IMG/VR virus record: IMGVR_UViG_3300025120_014829
Location: 1 to 56,840 of that record
DNA: 56,840 nucleotides
Source of the DNA: a virus
Lineage: Duplodnaviria > Caudoviricetes
Strand: one strand, 5' to 3'
The notes under the pieces are model-generated. The model did not search any database and was not told the DNA's origin. It saw nothing but the letters and a program-made list of their open reading frames with translations. The position numbers and the translations under genes were made by a program. Below, piece after piece: positions 34,668 to 55,828 of this stretch; the stretch's first letter is position 1, and the number at the start of each line of letters is the position of its first letter.

Positions 34668-34736
34668 TGAGCCACCTTTTGTTAATTTAACTATATCATT
34701 ATATAATAATAATTATTAAGATGGAGCTGTTTAATA

Positions 34737-34985
34737 ATGAAATGTTTTGAATATAACAACACATGTAAAAATAATTGTATGAAAACTGATTGTAGATATT
34801 GGATCAAAAAGGAATCATATCAAAATTGTTGCTTGATTGCTGCTGATAAAAATGGTTTAAATAGAGAAGAAAAATTTACACTTCAAGATATTGGTGACAT
34901 ATTTAGAGTTACGAGAATGAGAATTTGTCAAATTGAAAAAATTGCTGTTCGCAAACTCAAAGATAAGTTTTCTAACTTTGAATAA
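34737..34985 (+). CDS. Stand-alone sigma70 region-4 HTH protein with a Cys-rich N-terminus
   Basis: TLQDIGDIFRVTRMRICQIEKIAVRKL; C..C...C....C N-terminus. Confidence 0.8.
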   Translation: MKCFEYNNTCKNNCMKTDCRYWIKKESYQNCCLIAADKNGLNREEKFTLQDIGDIFRVTRMRICQIEKIAVRKLKDKFSNFE

Positions 34986-34988
34986 TAA

Positions 34989-35013
34989 AAAAGTCACACT
35001 AAGTGTGACTTTT
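34989..35013. terminator. Bidirectional intrinsic terminator
   Basis: AAAAGTCACAC-TAA-GTGTGACTTTT perfect inverted repeat between convergent genes. Confidence 0.8.
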
Positions 35014-35037
35014 AAAGTTTATGAAATATTAAAATTT

Positions 35038-35229
35038 CTATTCTTTACTAGTATCAAGGGAAGTCTTTACAATACTTGATGCAAGTTTTTTTGCTTCTCT
35101 CAAACCTTTTCTAGCTCTTACACCTGCTGATTTATTTCCTTGGGCATTTTTTACAACGTCCGTCTGCAGTGTTTCAATCAACACCTTCAATTCTTCATAC
35201 TGTGAAATTAAAGCTTCATTCAATGACAT
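35038..35229 (-). CDS. Histone H1-like (Hc1 family) nucleoid protein
   Basis: GNKSAGVRARKGL signature in a 63 aa helical hairpin; GGAGG RBS. Confidence 0.8.
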   Translation of the reverse strand: MSLNEALISQYEELKVLIETLQTDVVKNAQGNKSAGVRARKGLREAKKLASSIVKTSLDTSKE

Positions 35230-35238
35230 ATTTTCCTC

Positions 35239-35499
35239 CTACTCTAAAATAATCTTTGGTTTATTGCTGTCTTCTATATTATTATCTGCTTTTTCTTCTT
35301 TGTTAATTACTTCTCTATACTTTTTTAATACTTCTGCTATATCTTTAAGAGCTTCGTTACTCTCTAAACTCAAGCAGATACCATGTAACACATCATATTT
35401 TTGTTGTTCAGAAACACCAAATTTTAATATCTCTGAGACAATATCTCTTGATTTCTGTTTATCACGTGCTAATTTTTGTAACTTTACATTACTAGTCAT
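35239..35499 (-). CDS. Hypothetical protein
   Basis: 86 aa ORF with GGAG RBS, in operon. Confidence 0.7.
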   Translation of the reverse strand: MTSNVKLQKLARDKQKSRDIVSEILKFGVSEQQKYDVLHGICLSLESNEALKDIAEVLKKYREVINKEEKADNNIEDSNKPKIILE

Positions 35500-35501
35500 T
35501 A

Positions 35502-36191: not shown

Positions 36192-37436
36192 CTATTTGTT
36201 AATTATTAAAACTTCAAAACTTTCAAGCTTTTCAGTTAGACTTTTGATCTTTCCATTAGCAATATTAATATAGTCGCTTGGTATGTAAAATATTTGATCA
36301 TCTAATGATCTTACTAACACTTGATTTTTATTTGTATTTGCCAAGAATCTAAAAAAGTAATCTAATTCTCTTAATGACTTTTTATTACGTGTCATCATAT
36401 CTGGAAGATAAACGTTAACTCTTTCTGAAGTTAGATTTTTCAATCTTTGTTGTAGCGGTTCTATTTTAACATCACTTTTTAACTTTGCATCCTGTATTCG
36501 CTTTTTAATAAATTCTCTATGCAACTCTATCTCTACTTTTCCTATACATGGTTTTAGTATAATCTTGCCCGGTCTAAAACTTATACAATCACCTGTTTTT
36601 AATTTTTTCCTTACTTCTTGTGAGATAGTTTGACCCATAGCACTAGTAACAACATCAGCACCATGAATTACTGCGATATCATTTAGGACATTAAGTGTGT
36701 TTTCATCACTTGAATCTAGACACACTGGATACACTCTGAATTTGTTCATCGAATTGTTTTTAATGATTGTTTGTTTTACTTCTTCTGAGACACCAAAACA
36801 AAACAAAACGTATGGTTCTTTATTTATACTAGCCTCATACAACATGTGATGTATTTCACCTAACGATTCCACAATTCCATCTACAATTATATATTTGTAT
36901 TTTTTAAATGAGTGGTTTGCATTGTTTTTAAAAAAGTCATAATCAAAACTAAAACTAAACGAAAAATCATTGAAATATTCTACACAAATTTGTTCACCAT
37001 GATATTTTTCAATATTGATTGATCTTTTGAGGCTAGCATTATCAAAAAACCACTTAGCTAGATTACGTGTAGTTGGTAACCTCAAACTCTTAATAAAGCT
37101 TTTTTGCTTTTTCTTGCAATATTTGTAATCATTCCTAACTGGTATTTTTTCTTTAAATAATTTATGCAAGAAATATTCCCCTAAGTACGGATATATTTTT
37201 TCACATTCTTCAAATTCATTTATTATTAAGTTTTTTAAAGGTACTTGATAATCATTAGTTGGCATCACGTTTAAATAATTTAATGACAAATCAGATACAA
37301 TTGTTTCACTGTCATAAATGACACTATTTTTATCCACAAAACTTTTAAAAGTATCTGCTTCTTTTTCTAAAAATTGTTGTACTTGTGCATTACCAAAAAA
37401 AATATTATGAGTCACGCCAGAGGTTGTTGCTCGCAT
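36192..37436 (-). CDS. Divergent GroEL/Cpn60-like protein (start uncertain, possibly GTG at 37415)
   Basis: IIVDGIVESLGEIHHML...EPYVLFC.GVSEEV, LNDIAVIHGADVVT...G and LQQRLKNL parallel the GroEL apical/intermediate domains. Confidence 0.65.
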   Translation of the reverse strand: MRATTSGVTHNIFFGNAQVQQFLEKEADTFKSFVDKNSVIYDSETIVSDLSLNYLNVMPTNDYQVPLKNLIINEFEECEKIYPYLGEYFLHKLFKEKIPVRNDYKYCKKKQKSFIKSLRLPTTRNLAKWFFDNASLKRSINIEKYHGEQICVEYFNDFSFSFSFDYDFFKNNANHSFKKYKYIIVDGIVESLGEIHHMLYEASINKEPYVLFCFGVSEEVKQTIIKNNSMNKFRVYPVCLDSSDENTLNVLNDIAVIHGADVVTSAMGQTISQEVRKKLKTGDCISFRPGKIILKPCIGKVEIELHREFIKKRIQDAKLKSDVKIEPLQQRLKNLTSERVNVYLPDMMTRNKKSLRELDYFFRFLANTNKNQVLVRSLDDQIFYIPSDYINIANGKIKSLTEKLESFEVLIINK

Positions 37437-39339
37437 ATGTTAAAATCTCCTCTGCAGAACTTTCGTTATAACTGTATTCTTCAATTAATGTTCCGATCAT
37501 GTCTGTATATTTTTTCTTTTGATCATCGTCTCTTGATTTTGACCGGGTAACAATCCTAGCAATGTCTTTAACAGAAGTTATTAAATACTTTTCAATTGCT
37601 TCTTTTAAAGGACCGTACGATTTATAATCAACAGTCTCACCTTTTCTCATCTTTGAGAACATATATGCAGTAACATCATTTCTGAAACCATCCCTTGCAG
37701 AACCAGTCACGCTTATCATTTCTTCAATGATTCTCATAAATTTTTCATCAGGATCTCTTTCTTCCCGCGTAATCTTATCTTTTACGCGCGTCTTGGTTGT
37801 GTAACATTCAGCATTATCTAAATAAGAATCAAATAATGATTGTGCTTGTTCTTCATAAGCTGTGATAAATGCTTTTGCAATTTCTGTTTCTAGAATTCTA
37901 AGATATTCTTCACGAATGATCTTTTGGAGTATTTCAAGATATCTAGTTTTTGCTTCTTCGTCGATAACTTGCTCTTTAACTTGTTTAATTAAAGAATCAA
38001 CTACATTAATAGGAGTAATCATTCCATTATCTGAGTCTGAAAGAGCGGCATCTAAAGATTTCATAATAAAACGTGTAGAAATACCTTCCATCCCCTCATG
38101 CTTTGCTTCATCTTTAAGATCACGAATATCAACCTTTTTAACTCTACCTTTTTCAATAATAGCTTCACCGTTATAGATTTTCAACTTTGTCAATAAATCA
38201 CACTTATTTGAGGGTTGGAGTCGCGACATAATTGAAAACATTGATGCTACTTTTAATGTGTGCGGTGCAATATGGGCATTTCTAAAGTCTGATCTTTTTA
38301 TCATTTTTTGATAAATTTTCATTTCTTGGTCTAATTCTAAAACATACGGTACATTTATTTTAACTACTCTATCTAAAATTGCTTCGTTAGTGTGCTCTGA
38401 TTTAAATCTATTCCATTCACTTTCATTACAGTGCGCAAGAATTACACCGTCAAAGAAAACCATATCATGTCTACCAGGAGCCGGTACACGTTTTTCTTGG
38501 GTTGCTGTCAGCATCGTATGTAAGAATTCAATTTCATTTTTAAACACTTCAACAAATTCGACAATACCCCTGTTACCCACATTAAACGCACCGTTTAGGG
38601 AGAGGACTCGTGGGTCATCTTCAGGATATAAATCTAGTTTACTAATGTCTTCAGTTCCAATTAACACAGAAGTATCCTGGGAGTTTGCGTCCATTGGTGG
38701 TACTACAGCAATTCCCCTTCTACCTCTTTGGGAAAATGTCGATTCAACTACTTTAAAGTTTTCGTATTTACCTTCATACTCATTTAATAATTTCCATCTA
38801 GCAATAGGGCTTAGATCGCCTTCTATTGTTACGCCTAGTATATCTTCCATATCGCTACGAAGAGATCTAGGTATTAATTGCAGGGGTTCACCGCGTTGAG
38901 GATCTCCATCTAGATGAAAATATCTTTGTCCATCAAGCGCGCTTTTTATGTGTTCTGTCAATGCAGATTTACCAGCGCCTACTGGTCCCATTAAAAGAAG
39001 CACTTGTCTACTTTCTTCACCTTTATGAGCGGCTGACTTTAAAAATCTCATTAGTTTATTAATCACAGACTCCATACCAAAAAATTCTTTTTTAAAGTAT
39101 TCGTAAGTTCTTATTTTATCACCATTAAAAATATCTCTATAAGTGTCTGAATCAATATCAACTGTATCGACACCATGATCACAAATTGTTTCATACAATC
39201 TTTTATGAGCTAGCTTTATTTTACCTGGGTCATCTCTAATCAATTCTAAGTACTCTATAAATGTACCTTTAAATTTTTCTTTCTTTTTTTTATTTCTTTG
39301 GTTTTGTATGAGTTTCAACAATTCGTTTTTACGTGTCAT
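37405..39339 (-). CDS. prkA: PrkA/YeaG family AAA+ ATPase/serine kinase
   Basis: LLMGPVGAGKS, NRGIVEFVEVFK, HCNESEW, EGMEGISTRF; 644 aa. Confidence 0.93.
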   Translation of the reverse strand: MTRKNELLKLIQNQRNKKKKEKFKGTFIEYLELIRDDPGKIKLAHKRLYETICDHGVDTVDIDSDTYRDIFNGDKIRTYEYFKKEFFGMESVINKLMRFLKSAAHKGEESRQVLLLMGPVGAGKSALTEHIKSALDGQRYFHLDGDPQRGEPLQLIPRSLRSDMEDILGVTIEGDLSPIARWKLLNEYEGKYENFKVVESTFSQRGRRGIAVVPPMDANSQDTSVLIGTEDISKLDLYPEDDPRVLSLNGAFNVGNRGIVEFVEVFKNEIEFLHTMLTATQEKRVPAPGRHDMVFFDGVILAHCNESEWNRFKSEHTNEAILDRVVKINVPYVLELDQEMKIYQKMIKRSDFRNAHIAPHTLKVASMFSIMSRLQPSNKCDLLTKLKIYNGEAIIEKGRVKKVDIRDLKDEAKHEGMEGISTRFIMKSLDAALSDSDNGMITPINVVDSLIKQVKEQVIDEEAKTRYLEILQKIIREEYLRILETEIAKAFITAYEEQAQSLFDSYLDNAECYTTKTRVKDKITREERDPDEKFMRIIEEMISVTGSARDGFRNDVTAYMFSKMRKGETVDYKSYGPLKEAIEKYLITSVKDIARIVTRSKSRDDDQKKKYTDMIGTLIEEYSYNESSAEEILTYASNNLWRDS

Positions 39340-39392
39340 AAATTATATCTCCTGTTTCATATATTAATTAATACGTTCTCAGCGTAAAATAC

Positions 39393-40721
39393 TTAAATTT
39401 CCCAAACTTCTTCTTCTATAATTGTAAAAAGTTTAACTTCTTTGTCCCACATTTCCCTTACGTGATCCATCACTTTGTCTGCATAGTCTAAGTCTAAGTC
39501 GCGACCATCATGTTCATGTTTCAATACAAGCGACCCATCACTGTCAACCCTGTCTACATAAATATGAGGTATCATGTTAATCCCGGTGTTTCTAATCATT
39601 TCTTCTCTAACAACTTTCCAATCATCGTGATCAGTAACTTCAGAAACCACAGCTGATCCATCTTTTTTATTTTCGTATGCAAAAAAGTTTAATTCTCTAA
39701 AATCTTCTTCATCAAGTAACATTCTTAAGGCTGCTACGTCATCATGATTATCTCTCACTTCAAAACATTTTTCTAAACCATGCTCTCTTTCCATTTTTTG
39801 AAAGATATAAAAACCTACGTGATATGGGTTAACACCACCTAGGTGAGGCCTCACTACTGCATTGTGCATTTTTAGAAAAGGTAAGTGCATTGAATCTGGT
39901 AACTCTAAGTCATGAAGTATTTTGTAGTGCCAGAAAGATGCCCACCCCTCATTTAATATCTTTGTTTGTATTTGAGGCATAAAATACCAACTATCTTGTT
40001 TTACAATTTCAAGTAAATCAAGCTGCCAATTGGTAAACTTGTCTGGATAATATTCTGTGAAAAAAGACAAGAGGTCATGATCGGGTTTTAAGAGTCTTCT
40101 TGTTTCTAAACCTTCAAAGTCTAACACAAGACCTTTTTCTTTGTATGCATTATATCTTTTAATTTCTCTTTCTTTTATTTCACACCTAGTTTCTCTAGGT
40201 ATGCCGTAACGATCAGTCTGGTATTTTATTGCGTGTAGATTATCTAAAAAAGATTCAACTTTATCTTGACCTATGGAAGGGTTTTCAATATAACTTTGTA
40301 TTCTTTTTTTAGCATTTCTCATCCTTGAGACAACATGATCTGGGTCTGTATTTTTAAAACACCTGTTGTTTTTAAAGAAATCACTATGCCCGACACAATG
40401 TGCCATGATTAATATTTGCAGATACAGTGGATTCTGAAGCATTAAATATGCAATTGATGGGTTTGAATTAATAATCATCTCATAAGGCAACCCACTTTGA
40501 CCCATGTTGTAGTTGAGGTGTGTTCTTTCAAAAGTCTTACCATAACTCCAGTGATTATAGTGGCTTGGCATGCCATGATACGACATATGACCTATCATTT
40601 CGTAATAATCACAAATTTCATAAGTTATTTCAAACCAATCTAATCCGTAATTACGAGCTATTTCACATATTTTATCATCCCAAACGCTTAAATCTTTTGG
40701 TGAATATTCAGATAAGCTCAT
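39393..40721 (-). CDS. spoVR: SpoVR/YcgB family protein
   Basis: HWSYGK, YEMIINSNP.IAYL, AHCVGHSDFFKNN, QTKILNEGWASFWH, NPYHVG; start at 40721 after GGAGG. Confidence 0.93.
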   Translation of the reverse strand: MSLSEYSPKDLSVWDDKICEIARNYGLDWFEITYEICDYYEMIGHMSYHGMPSHYNHWSYGKTFERTHLNYNMGQSGLPYEMIINSNPSIAYLMLQNPLYLQILIMAHCVGHSDFFKNNRCFKNTDPDHVVSRMRNAKKRIQSYIENPSIGQDKVESFLDNLHAIKYQTDRYGIPRETRCEIKEREIKRYNAYKEKGLVLDFEGLETRRLLKPDHDLLSFFTEYYPDKFTNWQLDLLEIVKQDSWYFMPQIQTKILNEGWASFWHYKILHDLELPDSMHLPFLKMHNAVVRPHLGGVNPYHVGFYIFQKMEREHGLEKCFEVRDNHDDVAALRMLLDEEDFRELNFFAYENKKDGSAVVSEVTDHDDWKVVREEMIRNTGINMIPHIYVDRVDSDGSLVLKHEHDGRDLDLDYADKVMDHVREMWDKEVKLFTIIEEEVWEI

Positions 40722-41883
40722 ATTTTCCTCCAAATAACTTTGAAAATTGTGGCCATATATCTTTTTTGTCTCTAATGTTGATCACCTTAAATTTATCACT
40801 TATTAAAGGTTCAAATATTTTTGCCATTTCTTCTCCCCAAATTTTTTCCTGTGATCTCTTTATTTGAATATACCCGGCTAGTTGACTTATATTTACTAAG
40901 TTTCTCATCTTTTCTAAAGCTTTAGGGTTGTCTTCAGACCAATTTTCACCATCAGAACAATGAAATGTATAAATATTCCAACTTGATGGTGAATATCTTT
41001 CCTGCATTATCTGTTCAGCTTTTTCTAGTCCTGATGATATATAAGTCCCACCGGATGATGCTTTTTTAAAAAAGTCATCTTCGTTTGTTTCTTTCGCTTC
41101 AGTTGTGTGTGAAATAAATACCAAATCAATATTCTGGTATTTGAATCTGATAAATTGATATAGTAAGAAAAAGAACGATCGTGCAAGAAATTTCTTTCTT
41201 TTTGTCATGGAACCAGAAACATCCATTATCATAAAAATGACTGCATTAGTCACAGGTTTTTTAGTGACCTCAATATGTTTGTATTTAAGATCATCTTCAT
41301 GAAAAGGAAACCTATCTTCACTTTCTGGGTCAAACGTTCCATTATTAATGGCGCTGTTTCTTCTTCTAATCTTATTTTTTAAAGTTTCTTTCTTTGACAG
41401 TCTTGCATTAATACCTTTAGGTCTATATCCTTTGCGTTTGATCCGATCAGATGTCACAGTGTTATTCTGTTTCTTCTTAAGTTCAGGAAGGTTTAAATCA
41501 TCAAATAAGTACTTTGCTAGTTCATCTAATGAAACCTCGACATCGTAGTAGTCCTCTCCAGCACTATTGCCCGGCTTTTCTGGTTTACCGGCGCCTTTAC
41601 CTTTCTGTTTAGGTTTGCGAACTACTTGTCCTTTTTTAATATCTTGCCCTTGAGCTGATCCTACACCCTTAGTGCCACTACCTACACCATAAATAAATTG
41701 ATATTCTTTAATACCTCTGACGGGTATCTTTATTTTCTTTTTACCGTCTTGACCAATTATGCTTTCTTCAGCTACAATATCATGTATACCTTCTTTGATG
41801 GCTTTATCAATCTTTTCTTTGTGCCTTCTTCTATCTGAAGCAGATCTGTCTGCAACTGTCTTATGATTCTTAAATACTGACAT
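40708..41883 (-). CDS. yeaH: YeaH/YhbH (DUF444) vWA-domain protein
   Basis: DRRRH, MDVSGSM (MIDAS), FISHTTEA, SGGTYISS, HCSDGENW. Confidence 0.92.
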   Translation of the reverse strand: MSVFKNHKTVADRSASDRRRHKEKIDKAIKEGIHDIVAEESIIGQDGKKKIKIPVRGIKEYQFIYGVGSGTKGVGSAQGQDIKKGQVVRKPKQKGKGAGKPEKPGNSAGEDYYDVEVSLDELAKYLFDDLNLPELKKKQNNTVTSDRIKRKGYRPKGINARLSKKETLKNKIRRRNSAINNGTFDPESEDRFPFHEDDLKYKHIEVTKKPVTNAVIFMIMDVSGSMTKRKKFLARSFFFLLYQFIRFKYQNIDLVFISHTTEAKETNEDDFFKKASSGGTYISSGLEKAEQIMQERYSPSSWNIYTFHCSDGENWSEDNPKALEKMRNLVNISQLAGYIQIKRSQEKIWGEEMAKIFEPLISDKFKVINIRDKKDIWPQFSKLFGGKYELI

Positions 41884-41986: not shown

Positions 41987-42805
41987 ATGGATGACAATAA
42001 TATATTAAAGCTAATTTTAAAAGATTTACAAAAATTAAATGAAAAAAAGAAATCTAGTGGAATGAGAAGTGTAAAGAAAGGTGCAGACAATAATCCTAAA
42101 GTTACTAAAATGGATTTTCTGCCGGACAAGGTTTTAAATAAAATAGCTAAATCTAAAAACGAAGAAAAAGGTGAAGAGTGCTCTGCATGTGGCCATGTTG
42201 CAAAAGGAGATGATACAAATTGCGAGATGTGCAAAGAACCTCTAAACAATTTACAAGAAAAGCGCAAGAAAAAAAGAAAGAAAAAGCAAGTCAGGCATGA
42301 TCCGAATTATAGTGCTCCAGAAGGTTCAAAAAGAGATGCAGGGCTAGACAGAGCAAGAAGAGCATACCAACGAGGTGACGTAGCAGCTGCTGCAAAAATA
42401 AGAAGAAATATGGAAAAACCACATATGAAAGAGTCAAAACAGATAAATGAACTAAATGAACTTTTGAATGATATGATTGAGGAGCAGCTTTTAGACGAAA
42501 TGCTAAATGAATTAGAAAATCAGCTTAATGAAAAAAGAAAGCGTAAAAAGAAGAAGAAAAAAGGCGGAGGTTTATCTGCTGCAGTTAAAAAATCGCTTGA
42601 TAAGAAAGCAGACAAGAGATGTCTGACCCGCGGTTCTGTATATTCTGAGTTTAGAAAGGGGCTAGCAGCATTTTTATCCTCAGGTTCTAGAAAAGGTATG
42701 TCAGCACATCAATGGGCACATGCTCGAGTTAATTCAGCAAACCCAAGTAAGTCATGGGCATCTGTAAAGAAGCGCAAAACATGTCCTAAAAAGAAAAAGA
42801 AGTAA
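41987..42805 (+). CDS. Highly basic protein with a Zn ribbon and a DUF5824-like C-terminal domain
   Basis: CSACG...CEMC, poly-Lys tracts, LNE repeats, RKGLAAF.SSGSR...AHQWAHARVNS. Confidence 0.75.
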   Translation: MDDNNILKLILKDLQKLNEKKKSSGMRSVKKGADNNPKVTKMDFLPDKVLNKIAKSKNEEKGEECSACGHVAKGDDTNCEMCKEPLNNLQEKRKKKRKKKQVRHDPNYSAPEGSKRDAGLDRARRAYQRGDVAAAAKIRRNMEKPHMKESKQINELNELLNDMIEEQLLDEMLNELENQLNEKRKRKKKKKKGGGLSAAVKKSLDKKADKRCLTRGSVYSEFRKGLAAFLSSGSRKGMSAHQWAHARVNSANPSKSWASVKKRKTCPKKKKK

Positions 42806-42811
42806 TTAGAT

Positions 42812-43159
42812 ATGAAGATAACAAGACGTTTTATAAAGAACCTAATCAAGGAAGTAAAGGGAGGCAATTCTTGTCCTGCTGCGACCAAAGATAAGAAAGT
42901 TAACGCTGAAAACAAAATCAAAGCTGCAAAAAACCCTAAAATCAAATACGGTCACCCAAGTAAAATTAAAGATTTGCAAAAGCTTTTAAAAGAAAATAAA
43001 CTTTGTGGCAATTGCGCTGCTTTTGACATTACCCCTAAAATGATTAAGTGTGGCGGAGCTAATAAGAAAGGCACAGCAGGCTACTGTAAAATGCACGACT
43101 TTAGTTGTGCAGCAGAAAAGACATGTTTAACTTGGGCACCAGGAGGACCAAAGAGATGA
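42812..43159 (+). CDS. Cys-rich small protein with MKITRR leader
   Basis: CPAAT, CGNCAAFD, C, GYCKMHDFSC...TCLTWAPGGP. Confidence 0.8.
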   Translation: MKITRRFIKNLIKEVKGGNSCPAATKDKKVNAENKIKAAKNPKIKYGHPSKIKDLQKLLKENKLCGNCAAFDITPKMIKCGGANKKGTAGYCKMHDFSCAAEKTCLTWAPGGPKR

Positions 43160-43803
43160 AAATAACAAGAAGACAAATTAGAATATTATTAGAACAAGAA
43201 GTTGAAAAACTTTCTGATGAAGAAAAAGTAGCTGCAGAAAAAAAGATAGAAGACGAAGGTGGTGCTTTAGGTAAGGATGACTTTGTAAAAACAGTCAATG
43301 ACATCAACCCAGATGTAAATTACAGTGAAGAAGAAGCGTTACGTCGAGCTCAAGCATCAATTGAAGACTTTAAACTTCATAAGGCTACAGATGTATACAC
43401 CGACAGACCAAAAGAAATTAATGAAACTTTTTTAAGGCGATTAATAAGAGAAAAACTTGAAAAGATTGCTTTCTATGACAAGTACAGTTACGGATTAGAT
43501 GATATCCCTAACCAGACAAAAGCACATGACGATATTATAGGTCACACATGACTGACTCACGTTAAGCGGAAGGATTCTGCTTTAAATGAGGTTGGCAAAG
43601 TACTTTGGCATTCTTTAGATGAGAGCGGTCATATTGCTACATATGACGTTAAATGGTCTAATGATGTCATTGAGCGTGACATACCTTCAATATTACTTGA
43701 AAAAGTAAAAGACAGTAATGATATTGATGAAGTTCATGAATCACACGGTGTTGAAGGTCACAGATTAGATGCGCCTACAAGTGAAAGAAAATACAAGCTT
43801 TAA
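43156..43803 (+). CDS. Candidate selenoprotein (215 aa; in-frame TGA at 43549-43551 read as Sec)
   Basis: AGGAGG RBS and ATGA overlap at 43156; frame stays open for 83 codons after the TGA to TAA at 43801-43803; SECIS-like hairpin follows the TGA; context GHT-U-LTHV. Confidence 0.75.
43552..43590 (+). promoter_or_regulatory. Bacterial SECIS-like stem-loop
   Basis: AAGCGGAA(43564-71)/GGA/TTCTGCTT(43575-82) 8-bp stem with one G-U pair; lower CTCA/TGAG pairing; G-led apical loop begins after a 20 nt spacer from the UGA. Confidence 0.65.
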
Positions 43804-44504
43804 AGACTTAAATCAACGTCAAAAACATTGTCGCGCATATCATAAAGTTTTTGTATATCTCCCTCGCTACGCAGTATTTTATAAATAATATTCTCGTCAG
43901 ACATTTCGCCTCCTTTATCGAGTCCAGCCTGGCGCATGTTATTAATCTTTTTTATAAGTTTATCGAGGTCCGCAGTGATTCTAGTAATTTTAGCTTCATC
44001 AATTTCCATATTAATTTGTCTCCTAAGATACTTTACCTTTTTTAAAACGTTTTGCTTGTCAAAACTACTTCTAAACTTATCAGGTTTTGACAACCATTTG
44101 TCATCTTTAATTGAATACACACCGCTCTCAACTGACTTCATATTTACATCTTGCGCAAATAACTCCACTTCAATGTTCAATACACGAATGTCATGTCGAA
44201 AATTAAATAGTTTTTTCTTTGCCTTTAAGAATTCTTCAACTAAATCGACGTCACGATTAATAGACTTTGGATCAACTATAATATGCAGATCAATGTCTGA
44301 ATAAGGAGTATAGTTGTAGTTTGCGTATGACCCTGTGAATGTCACGTCAATTACATCTATAGAAATACCTAGGTAATCTACGAAAGCATCGGATATTTCA
44401 AGCAGTTGTTCTCTAATATCAGGTTTTAGTTTATCTTCTTTCCACAATTTAACACTCAGTTCATCATGTGGTAAATGCTGTTTTATTTTGCTGCTAATTG
44501 ACAA
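43800..44504 (-). CDS. Pol-beta superfamily nucleotidyltransferase (phage type)
   Basis: TGSYANYNYTPYSDIDLHI (GS...DxD), VELFAQD, GVYS, ENIIYKILR; start codon uncertain. Confidence 0.85.
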   Translation of the reverse strand: MSISSKIKQHLPHDELSVKLWKEDKLKPDIREQLLEISDAFVDYLGISIDVIDVTFTGSYANYNYTPYSDIDLHIIVDPKSINRDVDLVEEFLKAKKKLFNFRHDIRVLNIEVELFAQDVNMKSVESGVYSIKDDKWLSKPDKFRSSFDKQNVLKKVKYLRRQINMEIDEAKITRITADLDKLIKKINNMRQAGLDKGGEMSDENIIYKILRSEGDIQKLYDMRDNVFDVDLSL

Positions 44505-52402: not shown

Positions 52403-53491
52403 TTACCTGTCTAAAAACAGAGAATACGACCCATCATAGTACTTTATAATAATACTAGCATTCTCAGCAGCATTAATTAAATGATGAGAGTGGTAAATAT
52501 AAGACTCATATGTTTGTTCATCAATTTTTTGCTTATATTCCTCAACAAAATCATTATAACTTTGCATCATTTCTACAAAAAATCGAATATTAACATTAAC
52601 AATCTTATCAATCCCTTCAGTATTATTGTAGATTTCTTTGGCAACCTGGTCAGGCGTTAATGATTTAATCATTTTAAAAAACACATTAAAACGATCGATT
52701 CCATCTTTTGTTGCAAATCCTCGACGAAAGTACTCAAATATTTCAGCAATTGTGGTACCACTCGAAGCGCGCTGTTCATAACTTAATTCTGATGGTGATA
52801 AACTATCTCCGGAAAAACCAAGCAGTGGTAGTAATATGTCTTTTAAAGTGTCATCAAATTCACTTTTTAGTTCATTCTCAGTGCGATTAATAAATGAAAA
52901 GACTTTGCTAAATCCAGCAGGTGTAAAGTGTTTTATATTAATACCCTTTGAATATCCTGAGTGCAAAAAGATTGTTTTAAAAAATAAATGAATAGGACTA
53001 ATTCCGTGAGCATTAGAAGTAACAAGAAAATCATCATACTTTTCACCCATCTCAATTAAATCATCCCGCGAGTCTGTTAAATAAAAAGAATTGTCATGCG
53101 CAATCTTGAAAAACACAGCAATAAAATTTACTTCTGATGTCAAATTACCTAACTTTGTCAAGTTTTCTCTACCAGAAGGTGTCATTAACTTACCAATCGA
53201 CGAAGCCCCTCTTGTATCACCACCGTGCATAGAGTACTTACTAGTAAAAAACTCTAGCCTGGATGGCAACTCTAGAGTAGAATCTGTTTTTTTAAAACCA
53301 GATCTTTGCTTAGATCTATATATCCCGTCAGGTAAAGCACGATACAGCGACAGCACACTCTGTATCATTAATCCCACAGCATGACTAGTCATCGTAGATT
53401 CTTTAAATTCGTCAGGAGCAGACTGCAAAGCTAGCGTGTGCATTAACGATTCTTGTATTAACTTTCTTAATATTTTCTTTGTTACTTTCAT
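52403..53491 (-). CDS. Hypothetical protein with leader motif
   Basis: MKVTKKILRKLIQESL N-terminus; 362 aa. Confidence 0.75.
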   Translation of the reverse strand: MKVTKKILRKLIQESLMHTLALQSAPDEFKESTMTSHAVGLMIQSVLSLYRALPDGIYRSKQRSGFKKTDSTLELPSRLEFFTSKYSMHGGDTRGASSIGKLMTPSGRENLTKLGNLTSEVNFIAVFFKIAHDNSFYLTDSRDDLIEMGEKYDDFLVTSNAHGISPIHLFFKTIFLHSGYSKGINIKHFTPAGFSKVFSFINRTENELKSEFDDTLKDILLPLLGFSGDSLSPSELSYEQRASSGTTIAEIFEYFRRGFATKDGIDRFNVFFKMIKSLTPDQVAKEIYNNTEGIDKIVNVNIRFFVEMMQSYNDFVEEYKQKIDEQTYESYIYHSHHLINAAENASIIIKYYDGSYSLFLDR

Positions 53492-53524: not shown

Positions 53525-54073
53525 CTAATACCGGCCTATAGCACGTATCTCTTGAATAATAATTTTTCTTATTTGATTACGTGTTAATTTCTCTTCAATC
53601 CCAGCACGTGTCCTATTGCTAGGGTTGGCATTAAAATACCTATCCATATGTATATCGTCTAAATCAATGATTCGACCTAGGTCATCTCCAGCATCTCTCA
53701 CAGCTTTATCCATCGCTAGTTCTTGTGCCTGAGACTCAATACCACCAAAACCATATATTCTACCTAGCGCATCTTTGCTTTCTTCCGGATCTTGTGGGAG
53801 ATTGCTTAAAATATCTTCTGCTCGACCTCCTAATTTCTCCATATCACCAACTTCTTGATACGCGATGTAATTATCCACGTAATTAGGCGCACCGTACGAG
53901 TCTAGAAAGCTTCTAGCTTGATTTATATCCTCTGGTGTTCCTCGATCAATCATTGCATTAATTTTTTCTGCATGAGATGCAGGAATATGTGCAGGTAACG
54001 AGGGTTTGATTCTATGCTCGAAAAACATAGCTTCACTGATTAATTTTCTTATTTGATTCCGGGTAGTTTTCAT
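53525..54073 (-). CDS. Hypothetical protein with leader motif at both ends; paralogue of 55067-55828
   Basis: MKTTRNQIRKLISEA and EKLTRNQIRKIIIQEI; shared RIKPS...VGD.EKLG domain. Confidence 0.8.
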   Translation of the reverse strand: MKTTRNQIRKLISEAMFFEHRIKPSLPAHIPASHAEKINAMIDRGTPEDINQARSFLDSYGAPNYVDNYIAYQEVGDMEKLGGRAEDILSNLPQDPEESKDALGRIYGFGGIESQAQELAMDKAVRDAGDDLGRIIDLDDIHMDRYFNANPSNRTRAGIEEKLTRNQIRKIIIQEIRAIGRY

Positions 54074-54106: not shown

Positions 54107-54481
54107 CTACAATCCAAATAACTCATTCCGCTCATCGCTATACAGAACACGCATATGCACACTAGCATTAAGTGCCGCAGCCTTGGCCAGTCGATGATTC
54201 CCGTCGAGCACTACAACAGGGCGCTTGGTCACACGATCCACTTCAACAATGATCGGCGTCAATATATTTGCGCGCTGCACTCGATGTGTCTCGATACCTG
54301 TTATCTCGCGTGCTAGCATCTTCTTAAGTTTACACGCATTCATTGTGATCACCGGCCGTGCACGACTGTCTAAGAAACCGGTCACATCCCCTAAACTAAC
54401 AACTCGATCTCCCATATCCCAAGTCGTATTAAGGCCTGACTCACGTATTAATCGTCTTAGTTGCCGGCGAGTAATTCTCAT
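54107..54481 (-). CDS. ParB/Srx-like domain protein with leader motif
   Basis: PIIV...VLDGNHRLAKA; MRITRRQLRRLIRE. Confidence 0.75.
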   Translation of the reverse strand: MRITRRQLRRLIRESGLNTTWDMGDRVVSLGDVTGFLDSRARPVITMNACKLKKMLAREITGIETHRVQRANILTPIIVEVDRVTKRPVVVLDGNHRLAKAAALNASVHMRVLYSDERNELFGL

Positions 54482-54494
54482 TCTTTCCTCTTTT

Positions 54495-55067
54495 TTAATT
54501 AATTAACTCGTCAAGTAAGTCATTATTAGGATTGTAATACGCACCGTCTTCCCAGTCAAACTCGTACGCTCCGGTATAGTAATACTCATTTACATCGTCC
54601 ATGTTATTCAGAAGCCATCTTTCAGCTTCAGAGACAACCTTGTCGAATAGAGCTAGCAACTCTGAACTACTTAGGCTGGGGCTACCCGCCTTTTTGGCTC
54701 TCACAGCATTTTTGACTTTTTGAAAAAGTCTTTTACTCACCGGGGCTTCAACACGTCGAAATTTGGAACCATCTTTGTTGACGTATGCCACACTAAGCGT
54801 GGGTCGGCTAGACAAGCGTTCATACCCACCTCTCATCTTTACAACAGCTGGGGCATCCATTTGATCTGAGATGTCAATTAAATTTGCCGCGGACTTGAAA
54901 TACTCATCGCTGTCTCCTGACATTGTTGACACTTTCTCCCTGTATTCCGGATTATCTGATACGATCATTGACTGCGGAATGTGCCTATCTTCACCGCTTG
55001 GAAATGTGTTCGGGTCATACATGGCTTCGCTAATTAATCGTCTTAATTGTTTTCTTGTGATAATCAT
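54495..55067 (-). CDS. Hypothetical protein with leader motif
   Basis: MIITRKQLRRLISEAM; GAGG RBS. Confidence 0.75.
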   Translation of the reverse strand: MIITRKQLRRLISEAMYDPNTFPSGEDRHIPQSMIVSDNPEYREKVSTMSGDSDEYFKSAANLIDISDQMDAPAVVKMRGGYERLSSRPTLSVAYVNKDGSKFRRVEAPVSKRLFQKVKNAVRAKKAGSPSLSSSELLALFDKVVSEAERWLLNNMDDVNEYYYTGAYEFDWEDGAYYNPNNDLLDELIN

Positions 55068-55828
55068 TATGACCTCTGTATATATAGTCGTCTTGGATCT
55101 CTATGTATCTGCAACATCTTGATCGCTGTTTCTATCTTAGTGTAGATTCCATATCGGAACTGAGAACGATCACGATTAAAATCACGTAAGTCATCAGCCA
55201 TGACAATGTGAGTATAAGACTTATTAATAAATGAATACAACGCATCAATCAAGTCTTCAACTTCAACACCAATAGCAACTTCACCACCAGGTAACTCAGG
55301 TGCACGCAAGTAATACTGATCTGTCATTTCGATCTCGAGAATGCGACGCACTGCCATTTCTTGTAATAGTTTATGCTCCAAAAACATGTCCGGGTCGCGA
55401 TGCTGAGGTATAGCATTTAGATGCTCTTTGTTTCTATTTTTTGCATATCTAGTATAGTAAGAGTCATAAAACGAGTCTAGTCGATCCTCTTGTTTCTCGA
55501 AGTCTTTCATGAAATCGCGTGCTATGGCCCTTGCTCGATCGTCCACTGATTGCACATCGCCATAACGATAACCGGGATCACTAAGAATTTCAGCTGCTTC
55601 ATTTCCTAGCTTCTCTAAGTCACCAACTTTTTCGTACGTCATATAGCTATCAACATAGTCTGGGTCTCCGTCAAATGCATCTATTAGTGACTGCGCCTGC
55701 GCTAGGCGACCACCATCAATGAGACTATGTATCTTATTTAAATGCTCCGGCGGGATATTAGTAACAGAAGGCTTGATTCTCACTTCTTGTAAAATAATTT
55801 GTCGTAATTGTCTTCGTGTCACTTTCAT
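55067..55828 (-). CDS. Hypothetical protein with leader motif; paralogue of 53525-54073
   Basis: Start at MKVTRRQLRQIILQE (55828) after GGAG. Confidence 0.78.
   Translation of the reverse strand: MKVTRRQLRQIILQEVRIKPSVTNIPPEHLNKIHSLIDGGRLAQAQSLIDAFDGDPDYVDSYMTYEKVGDLEKLGNEAAEILSDPGYRYGDVQSVDDRARAIARDFMKDFEKQEDRLDSFYDSYYTRYAKNRNKEHLNAIPQHRDPDMFLEHKLLQEMAVRRILEIEMTDQYYLRAPELPGGEVAIGVEVEDLIDALYSFINKSYTHIVMADDLRDFNRDRSQFRYGIYTKIETAIKMLQIHRDPRRLYIQRS

Follow-up and report, generated by a model that had tools for sequence, protein, structure and literature searches.

A predicted phage-encoded selenoprotein with an in-frame UGA codon and a SECIS-like hairpin

Bacterial selenoprotein genes with an intragenic selenocysteine insertion sequence (SECIS), of which fdhF of Escherichia coli is an example, carry an in-frame UGA where homologous proteins have Cys and, within the coding sequence right after this codon, a stem-loop whose small loop has a G followed by G or U. 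The same arrangement, with the loop 20 nt from the UGA, was found in a gene at 43156..43803 of the IMG/VR virus record IMGVR_UViG_3300025120_014829 (Duplodnaviria; Caudoviricetes), which was analysed as a whole (56,840 bp, 35% G+C) and is here called the window. We consider it highly probable that this gene encodes a single 215-residue phage selenoprotein, in which the UGA at 43549-43551 would be read as selenocysteine (Sec) by means of a bacterial-type SECIS element and the machinery of the host. The gene differs from the bacterial ones in being phage-encoded and in that the machinery would be borrowed from the host. In addition, neither Pfam nor PHROGs contained a family to which the protein, either of its halves or any of its relatives could be assigned.

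With respect to viruses, the glutathione peroxidase (GPx) selenoproteins of molluscum contagiosum virus and fowlpox virus are comparable in that a viral gene relies on the Sec machinery of its host, and the fowlpox SECIS also lies within the coding region; these two poxvirus GPx genes are the only virus selenoproteins in the available portion of the 2021 review of viral recoding (PMC8310308). However, according to the same portion they belong to eukaryotic viruses, represent captured cellular genes and use a eukaryotic-type SECIS, whereas the gene described here would combine a bacterial-type SECIS with a phage family that looks virus-only. No phage selenoprotein was found in searches of open-access full texts; subscription papers and bioRxiv supplements were outside this search, and an earlier description is possible. 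The words phage, virus and viral do not occur in the 2026 review of the prokaryotic selenoproteome or in the BSepDB paper. The Global Ocean Sampling (GOS) selenoproteome paper does not contain the word phage, and three motifs of the family were not found in its two supplementary text files; of the new families in that paper, GOS_A and GOS_B correspond to different proteins; for GOS_C, the description given is thioredoxin (Trx)-like with a UxxC motif.

The reading frame across the UGA and the identity of the codon

The annotated open reading frame (ORF) comprises 131 codons and ends in ...KAHDDIIGHT before the TGA, after which the frame remains open for 83 codons (LTHVKRKDSALNEVG...ERKYKL) up to a TAA. 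This extension, with LTHVKRKDSALNEVGKVLWHSLDESGHIATYDV as its N-terminal letters and ERKYKL at its C-terminus, contains no Met, and the ORF listing of the window holds no ATG, GTG or TTG ORF of at least 30 aa in its frame. Two full-length relatives, P0002 and P0003, span 100% of the recoded gene with 81 and 79% identity, respectively, both of them being gene calls made under genetic code 4. The anatomy given in the preliminary description, namely the TGA, the 83 open codons lacking Met and a TAA overlapping the convergent gene, was re-derived from the ORFs of the window.

A protein search gave 86 relatives, the closest of which (82-100% identical) end at GHT, while the full-length ones show W at the UGA position. 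The DNA of the close family was fetched with a pattern located upstream of the codon (..IIGHT), so that the retrieval was blind to the codon itself. It yielded 23 viral contigs and 78 metagenome contigs which, together with the window, make 102 loci with 74 unique 183-nt contexts, some loci being one contig present in two collections. The codon was TGA in all 102. Additionally, a profile of the domain was searched against 1.84 billion representative proteins and gave 147 hits. Twenty-nine distant ones were aligned, and the UGA column was occupied by Cys in 13 of them (in motifs such as HSCASHV, HACANHV, HDCPKHV, HDCATHV, HNCATLV and HFCATHV) and by W in the remainder. DNA was then fetched for both the W-type and the Cys-type proteins, which resulted in a second set of 98 more distant loci, with TGA in 89 and TGT or TGC in 9. 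Across the 200 locus entries of both sets, TGG was not found at this position.

It must be noted that the W-bearing database proteins that could be traced to a locus (7/7) match only under code 4, the DNA being TGA in every case, and that the Trp located at +19 from the UGA is TGG in 68/68 unique sequences. The Trp of the database homologues is an artefact of gene calling under genetic code 4. With respect to the Trp or variable residue that the preliminary description had considered as an argument against Sec, only TGA or Cys codons occur at the position. The public gene calls for P0002, P0003 and P0014-P0050 either end at the UGA or use code 4, giving Trp.

Contigs from four runs belonging to as many studies, an RNA library among them, span 43549-43551 with no listed difference there, while third codon positions near the UGA do vary among them; the RNA-library contig, which bridges the UGA of a relative, is no proof of transcription. 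Given the TGA in 102/102 loci and the agreement of independent contigs at the codon, with no TGG, TGT or TGC in the close family, the sequencing error that had initially been considered is excluded. A single locus, the metagenome contig L042, has a further in-frame stop, a second TGA about 25 codons after the conserved UGA (...VLWHVLDE*VHIAVYD, where others have DESGH), which is more suggestive of a local frameshift pair, or of an error in assembly, than of a second Sec.

The TGA loci form five subfamilies, each with its own local peptide: HT-U-LTHVKRKDSA in subfamily I, to which the window belongs, H[QNT]-U-FHHATWGSPK in II, HN-U-ATHMEWKSST in III, H[KQTD]-U-MKEGKLSS in IV and HD-U-ATHIKHPS in V. 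The part after the UGA is conserved as protein across the five of them, which answers the doubt raised in the preliminary description about the conservation of this region.

The hairpin after the UGA and the cysteine relatives

The sequence of the window forms the hairpin AGCGGAA-GGA-UUCUGCU, whose stem begins 13 nt and whose loop begins 20 nt after the UGA, with A43564-U43582 as a possible eighth pair, and the segment 43549-43600 folds at -14.3 kcal/mol (z = -2.82). In the available portion of its source (PMC13188914), the bacterial SECIS (bSECIS) model has loops of 3-9 nt that are separated by 16-37 nt from the UGA and contain a G within their first two positions, mostly as N1-G-[G/U]-N-N2; its upper stem comprises 4-16 bp, and the minimum free energy does not exceed -7.5 kcal/mol. 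The window element, with 7 bp, A-GGA-U, 20 nt and the above energy, falls within the limits stated there, as had been proposed from its G-led loop.

Among the 64 unique sequences of subfamily I, all 448 cells of the 7-bp helix are standard pairs and the loop is GGA or GGG. Pair 1 (29-45) is AU in 38, GC in 25 and GU in 1; pair 3 (31-43) is CG in 38 and AU in 26; and pair 4 (32-42) is GU in 34, AU in 26 and GC in 4. Changes on both sides occur at two pairs. The observed covariation was reached by none of 500 column shuffles, and a 3' partner slid along the sequence as a control paired in 48-63%. Moreover, the two main versions of the stem encode KRKDSA and RKKGSS, so that the amino acids have changed while the pairing has been kept. 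Of the codons +5 to +10, five have a synonymous entropy of 0 and the remaining one, Ser +9 (UCU 64/UCC 4), has 0.32, versus 0.3-2.1 at most other codons; as an example, Lys +7 is AAG in 68/68 sequences while Lys -10 is AAA in 51 and AAG in 14. Synonymous sites are frozen only under the hairpin, and the constraint acts on the RNA.

In a common register, in which the U of the UGA is position 1 and positions 17-23 are paired with 27-33, the 79 unique sequences of subfamilies I-III (KRKDSA/RKKGSS, TWGSPK and EWKSST) pair in 547 of 553 cells, and all 79 reach at least 6 of the 7 pairs. Two to four pair types are present at every pair but one invariant G-C. The loop has an invariant G24, being GGA in 39 sequences, GGG in 23 and GUC in 17; that of subfamily II, GGUC(U), is also the loop of fdhF. 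Subfamilies IV and V have hairpins of their own (AAAGCUG-AGUU-CAGCUUU and CAUCCA-AGUU-UGGGUG, with loops 18 and 21 nt after the UGA, respectively), each with its own compensatory variants. In each of the five subfamilies, a small loop containing G is found 18-21 nt after the UGA. The hairpin is lacking in the 7 unique Cys-type sequences from viral contigs, a set that excludes the DNA of the cyanophage isolate mentioned below: only 15 of their 49 cells pair and none of the seven reaches 6 of 7 pairs. Under a simple SECIS criterion, home-made and stricter than the published one, 91/97 unique TGA sequences and 0/7 Cys sequences were positive, on a background of 152 of the 2389 TGA trinucleotides of the window. 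The test of stem covariation suggested in the preliminary description was therefore positive, in that the hairpin co-varies and is not present in the Cys forms. No other copy of the apical motif GAAGGRTTC occurs in the window, although one match equals the chance expectation.

The Cys homologues of T4-like cyanophages, such as the N-terminal domain of gp154 of Synechococcus phage ACG-2014d (NC_026923.1, annotated as a cytidyltransferase), represent the same domain, with TGT or TGC instead of UGA. The ACG-2014d domain reads GHDCAKQV...AHTLLEDGTVTHYDI...ENVP...HEH, the motif in common with the cyanophage Cys form being GH-D-C-A-K-Q-V ... H-T-L-L-E-D-G ... Y-D-I ... N-V-P ... H-E-H, and it is fused to a 596-residue protein. 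This gp154, in the gp153/gp154 region, has 596 residues and no Pfam match, so its label as cytidyltransferase looks unsupported. When a Cys-form query was compared with cultured phages, 242 records were obtained, named Synechococcus, Prochlorococcus or Cyanophage with one exception, "Marine". The motif HxCATHV...HxLxExG...YDVxF with the UGA at the Cys, which had been put forward in the preliminary description, matches the Cys forms of T4-like cyanophages. The 13 distant proteins, the nine loci and one cyanophage isolate place Cys where the other relatives have UGA.

An alignment of 83 sequences, comprising four of the five TGA subfamilies (subfamily V is absent from it) and the Cys forms, showed as invariant H5, two residues before the Sec/Cys, C/U7, G22, H27 (20 residues on) and L29. 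The UGA position lies inside the most conserved motif, H-x-U-x-x-H. With respect to distribution, tblastn of the readthrough protein and blastn of the 6-kb region against cultured phages gave no match, nor did the Cys-form protein P0151; the prokaryote genome collection, scanned with the family, gave only an 11-residue chance match; and a natural Cys homologue used as a query in the ESM Atlas found viral hypothetical clusters only. The family thus looks virus-only. As judged from these sequences, the protein is a member of a virus-only superfamily of marine T4-like myoviruses, of which at least five subfamilies would use UGA with hairpins of their own and others, including those of cyanophages, Cys.

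Alternative readings of the codon and the question of the host

If the TGA were a true stop, the locus would contain a 131-residue protein followed by a decaying remnant, or else two separate genes. Many gene callers do finish the protein at GHT (P0004-P0012) and a remnant requires no start codon, but the 83 downstream codons show conservation at the protein level, with identities down to about 25-40% between subfamilies, there is no in-frame start 3' of the TGA, conservation peaks on both of its sides, and the extension is open over at least 81 codons in nearly all complete loci, L042 being the only one interrupted again. This reading is, in our opinion, extremely improbable. Practically no weight is given by us to the idea that TGA is a sense codon, be it through its reassignment throughout the genome (code 4 or 25) or through a suppressor tRNA of the phage. 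Code 4 was indeed chosen by public gene callers for several of these contigs, and stop-codon-recoded phages resemble the present case in having an in-frame TGA in a phage gene and in causing gene callers to switch to code 4; nevertheless, such phages read TGA or TAG as sense genome-wide, whereas here one codon in one gene is concerned. The stops of the 62 window ORFs taken as genes are TAA in 27, TGA in 22 (several of them in ATGA overlaps) and TAG in 13. After the other 21 TGA stops, the frame stays open for 0-27 codons, in contrast to the 83 found after 43549-43551, and no other long UGA readthrough frame was found in the window, in which 102 of 7380 stop-to-stop segments reach at least 83 codons. 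Therefore, TGA is an ordinary stop in this genome, as had been stated at the outset, and the extension is exceptional. In this regard, the nearby invariant Trp is encoded by TGG, the window has no tRNA genes, and a search of 10 related large contigs gave no tRNA with a UCA anticodon.

The two remaining alternatives accept that the codon is translated. A SelB-like factor acting with a Cys-charged UCA-anticodon tRNA, a type of system which has been proposed for some bacteria and is rare, could recode the UGA to cysteine and would leave the same signals as Sec, that is to say a SECIS-like hairpin and Cys at the homologous position. We regard it as very improbable: nothing here points to such a system, the phage contigs examined lack the corresponding tRNA, and a plain TGT or TGC would do, as in the Cys-type relatives. 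Programmed readthrough by a standard tRNA, such as Trp-tRNA, stimulated by the hairpin and giving the 131- and 215-residue products in a fixed ratio with no selenium, seems to us unlikely. It also predicts a conserved UGA, a conserved downstream frame and a hairpin, the phage contigs examined have no Sec machinery, and the base after the UGA is C in 101/102 close-family loci, UGA-C being a weak termination context. However, this base varies between subfamilies, the aligned column of the relatives holds Cys and not Trp, no locus has TGG, the residue is internal to the most conserved motif instead of marking the boundary of a domain, and the five subfamilies keep the small G-containing loop at a bSECIS-like distance. 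The A1 protein of phage Qbeta is alike in that a UGA in a phage gene is passed by some ribosomes to give a C-terminally extended product, but Trp is inserted there and its identity is unimportant, while in the present gene the most conserved motif contains the codon, Cys is its aligned counterpart and a SECIS-like hairpin comes after it. Neither an indifference to the identity of the residue nor TGG or extension-less homologues, which would be proper to readthrough of the Qbeta type, were found. To our knowledge, no case of hairpin-stimulated readthrough is established in bacteria.

Insertion of Sec is consequently the reading we prefer, although several observations weigh against it. Regarding the RNA, the 3-nt loop is at the lower limit of the bSECIS model, as given in the available portion of PMC13188914, and no Rfam SECIS match was obtained in 43400-43850 at E values up to 10; the coverage of bacterial SECIS elements by Rfam is described as poor in the accessible part of a preprint (10.64898/2026.04.03.716425). 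A lower stem formed by CUGACUCA with UGAG.UUGG, which appeared in single-sequence folds, was rejected as a conserved element, given its 82.7% pairing with many cells unpaired and no real covariation. Regarding the protein, no Cys variant was seen within subfamily I, and in a quick tree the starred branches force only one Sec/Cys change, the number of Sec/Cys switches not being fixable, so that the hairpin types could stem from few events. Regarding the machinery, tRNA-Sec did not exceed the cut-off in any of 10 related large contigs, in which tRNA-Leu and other ordinary tRNAs account for the hits below it, and selB was not found in the five related phage contigs searched. As judged by the major capsid protein, the closest cultured phages have Flavobacterium, Microcystis and Rhodothermus as hosts. 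A survey of 301 sampled genomes of the phylum of genome G011 (a Hymenobacter, reached via the chance match L211) found selB over the curated cut-off in only one, a figure relevant solely for a host from that phylum, in which case Sec decoding would be unlikely. Finally, Pelagibacter has no selC according to the accessible part of the same preprint, in which selC is reported for all of the 84 complete Actinomarina genomes examined there (10.64898/2026.04.03.716425).

As for the virus itself, the Gp23 major capsid family (PF07068) and the gp21-type protease family (PF03420) are each present in 5/5 related large contigs (136-237 kb; 40-95% complete by CheckV), in two of which the gene lies about 8 kb from the capsid gene. 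The major capsid protein is less than 50% identical to that of any cultured phage, with a Flavobacterium phage, a Microcystis phage, Rhodothermus phage RM378 and uncultured huge phages as best matches. Inference of the host from PrkA and the capsid protein gave distant hits only, with less than 50% identity.

Domain, leader and neighbouring genes

The 71-residue core, modelled with AlphaFold2 from the 83-sequence alignment, is predicted to form a small barrel of five strands, the Sec immediately preceding strand 1 (mean predicted local distance difference test, pLDDT, of 82); an earlier model of 119 aa was poor (pLDDT 64). The motif of the core barrel is G-x-V-x-W-H-S-L-x-E-x-G...YDV...IP...LE. 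Structure searches gave generic SH3/KOW/Tudor-like matches only, with a best Z of 5.3 and no Foldseek match at E <=1e-3, and the family profile also touches Tudor/Agenet repeat proteins, e.g., P0092. The invariant His-x-Sec/Cys could form a metal or redox centre together with the second invariant His and the C-terminal H-x-H. Many homologues, among others P0016, P0020, P0025, P0033, P0041 and P0043, extend beyond the ERKYKL with which the window protein ends, their C-terminal additions being poly-Lys, an aromatic YPYFYG-like motif and an acidic Gly/Asp-rich tail ...GGDFGGDGGGGE.

A 14-residue leader (consensus in Table 1) opens at least six otherwise unrelated ORFs of the window, and the motif also opens many ORFs in related phage loci (L003, L009, L011, L016, L019 and L023). 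The T4 prohead protease has L/I-x-E as its cleavage motif, and the capsid-targeting sequence of T4 ends in it; the internal head proteins of T4 carry an N-terminal capsid-targeting sequence that is cut by the gp21 prohead protease. The leader may be a shared targeting or propeptide signal, for instance for capsid targeting with cleavage after L/I-x-E. Given a leader ending in L/I-x-E and the protease found in the relatives, a head-internal location of the protein is plausible, and the head-targeting role put forward in the preliminary description gains indirect support. The resemblance to the T4 internal head proteins consists in a short leader with this ending common to several small proteins; unlike them, the present protein has no sequence homology to IPI-III.

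In the mechanism we propose, the hairpin, being inside the coding sequence, would act as a bacterial-type SECIS element and recruit host SelB with GTP and Sec-tRNA(Sec) to a ribosome paused at the UGA, in competition with release factor 2 (RF2). Given this competition, the truncated 131-residue product would probably be made too. The Sec would stand in the invariant H-x-U motif at the entrance of the small beta-barrel and, with the second invariant His and the C-terminal H-x-H, would most probably form a metal-binding or redox-active centre. We infer the dependence on SelB, the insertion of selenium, the chemistry of the site and the packaging into the head via the leader. A more extensive proposal, according to which the leader packages this virus-only selenoprotein into the head, the protein is delivered with the DNA, its His/Sec centre binds metal or performs redox chemistry early in infection, and the UGA or Cys state tracks the capacity of the host for Sec decoding, is offered tentatively and we consider it rather doubtful. 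Under this proposal the codon would be a marker of host range readable from the sequence, and phages would be able to tune a host-specific recoding signal, with a hairpin of its own for each of the five subfamilies.

Were the selenoprotein reading true, it would mean a widespread family of phage selenoproteins, with at least five UGA subfamilies on viral contigs of up to 237 kb, whose phages exploit the recoding machinery of their hosts and evolve matching SECIS elements. From the presence of UGA or Cys, a trait of the host could be predicted. It would also expose a systematic annotation artefact: since genes are truncated at the UGA or given a Trp under code 4, selenoproteins would be hidden in viromes and metagenome protein catalogues.

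Table 1. Positions in the window of the recoded gene, its elements, its neighbours and the other leader-bearing ORFs.
Feature	Position (strand)	Remarks
Upstream neighbour, small Cys-rich protein with the same N-terminal leader	42812..43159 (+)	Its TGA overlaps the start ATG (43156) of the recoded gene (ATGA); no Pfam or PHROG family found
Recoded gene	43156..43803 (+)	215 codons (131 + UGA + 83) + TAA; predicted selenoprotein, function not assigned; bears the leader
N-terminal leader MKITRRQIRILLEQE	43156..43200 (+)	Family consensus MK[ILV]TR+xL+xLIxE
Conserved core domain	43531..43743 (+)	H-x-U motif, predicted five-stranded small beta-barrel, start of the His-rich H-x-H tail
Invariant His of the H-x-U motif (codon), located two residues before the UGA	43543..43545 (+)	H5, invariant in the 83-sequence alignment
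In-frame UGA, predicted selenocysteine codon, residue 132	43549..43551 (+)	Conserved TGA among loci; no TGG
SECIS-like upper hairpin	43565..43581 (+)	7 bp, 43565-43571 with 43575-43581; loop GGA 43572-43574
Stop TAA of the readthrough frame	43801..43803 (+)	Overlaps the stop of the convergent ORF
Convergent ORF	43800-44504 (-)	Scores as NTP_transf_2, nucleotidyltransferase-like
Leader-bearing ORF	52403-53491 (-)	
Leader-bearing ORF	53525-54073 (-)	
Leader-bearing ORF	54107-54481 (-)	
Leader-bearing ORF	55067-55828 (-)	

Just upstream of the leader-bearing genes listed first in Table 1, the ORF at 41987-42805(+) encodes a Lys-rich protein of 272 residues with a CxxC...CxxC zinc-ribbon-like motif, for which the match to DUF5824 is sub-threshold (21.3 bits versus a cut-off of 25). 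The segment of 834 bp between PhoH and the next ORF (34668-35501) has no ORF of at least 90 aa on either strand, which is unusual in such a tightly packed window. The window also encodes UvdE, a PrkA-DUF444-SpoVR triad and a long sugar-biosynthesis cluster. The triad, at 37405-41883(-), is of the bacterial yeaG-yeaH-ycgB type, its PrkA being composed of an AAA domain and a kinase-like C-terminal domain, and the nearest phage PrkA hits are those of Thermus phages and huge uncultured phages, at 30-35% identity. The sugar-nucleotide/glycan gene run, at 3013-29679(-), is unusually large for a phage (about 27 kb) and includes NeuB, two CMP-sugar cytidylyltransferases, a KdsA-like DAHP_synth_1 protein, UDP-glucose dehydrogenases and epimerases, in addition to a carbamoyltransferase, methyltransferases and about ten glycosyltransferases.

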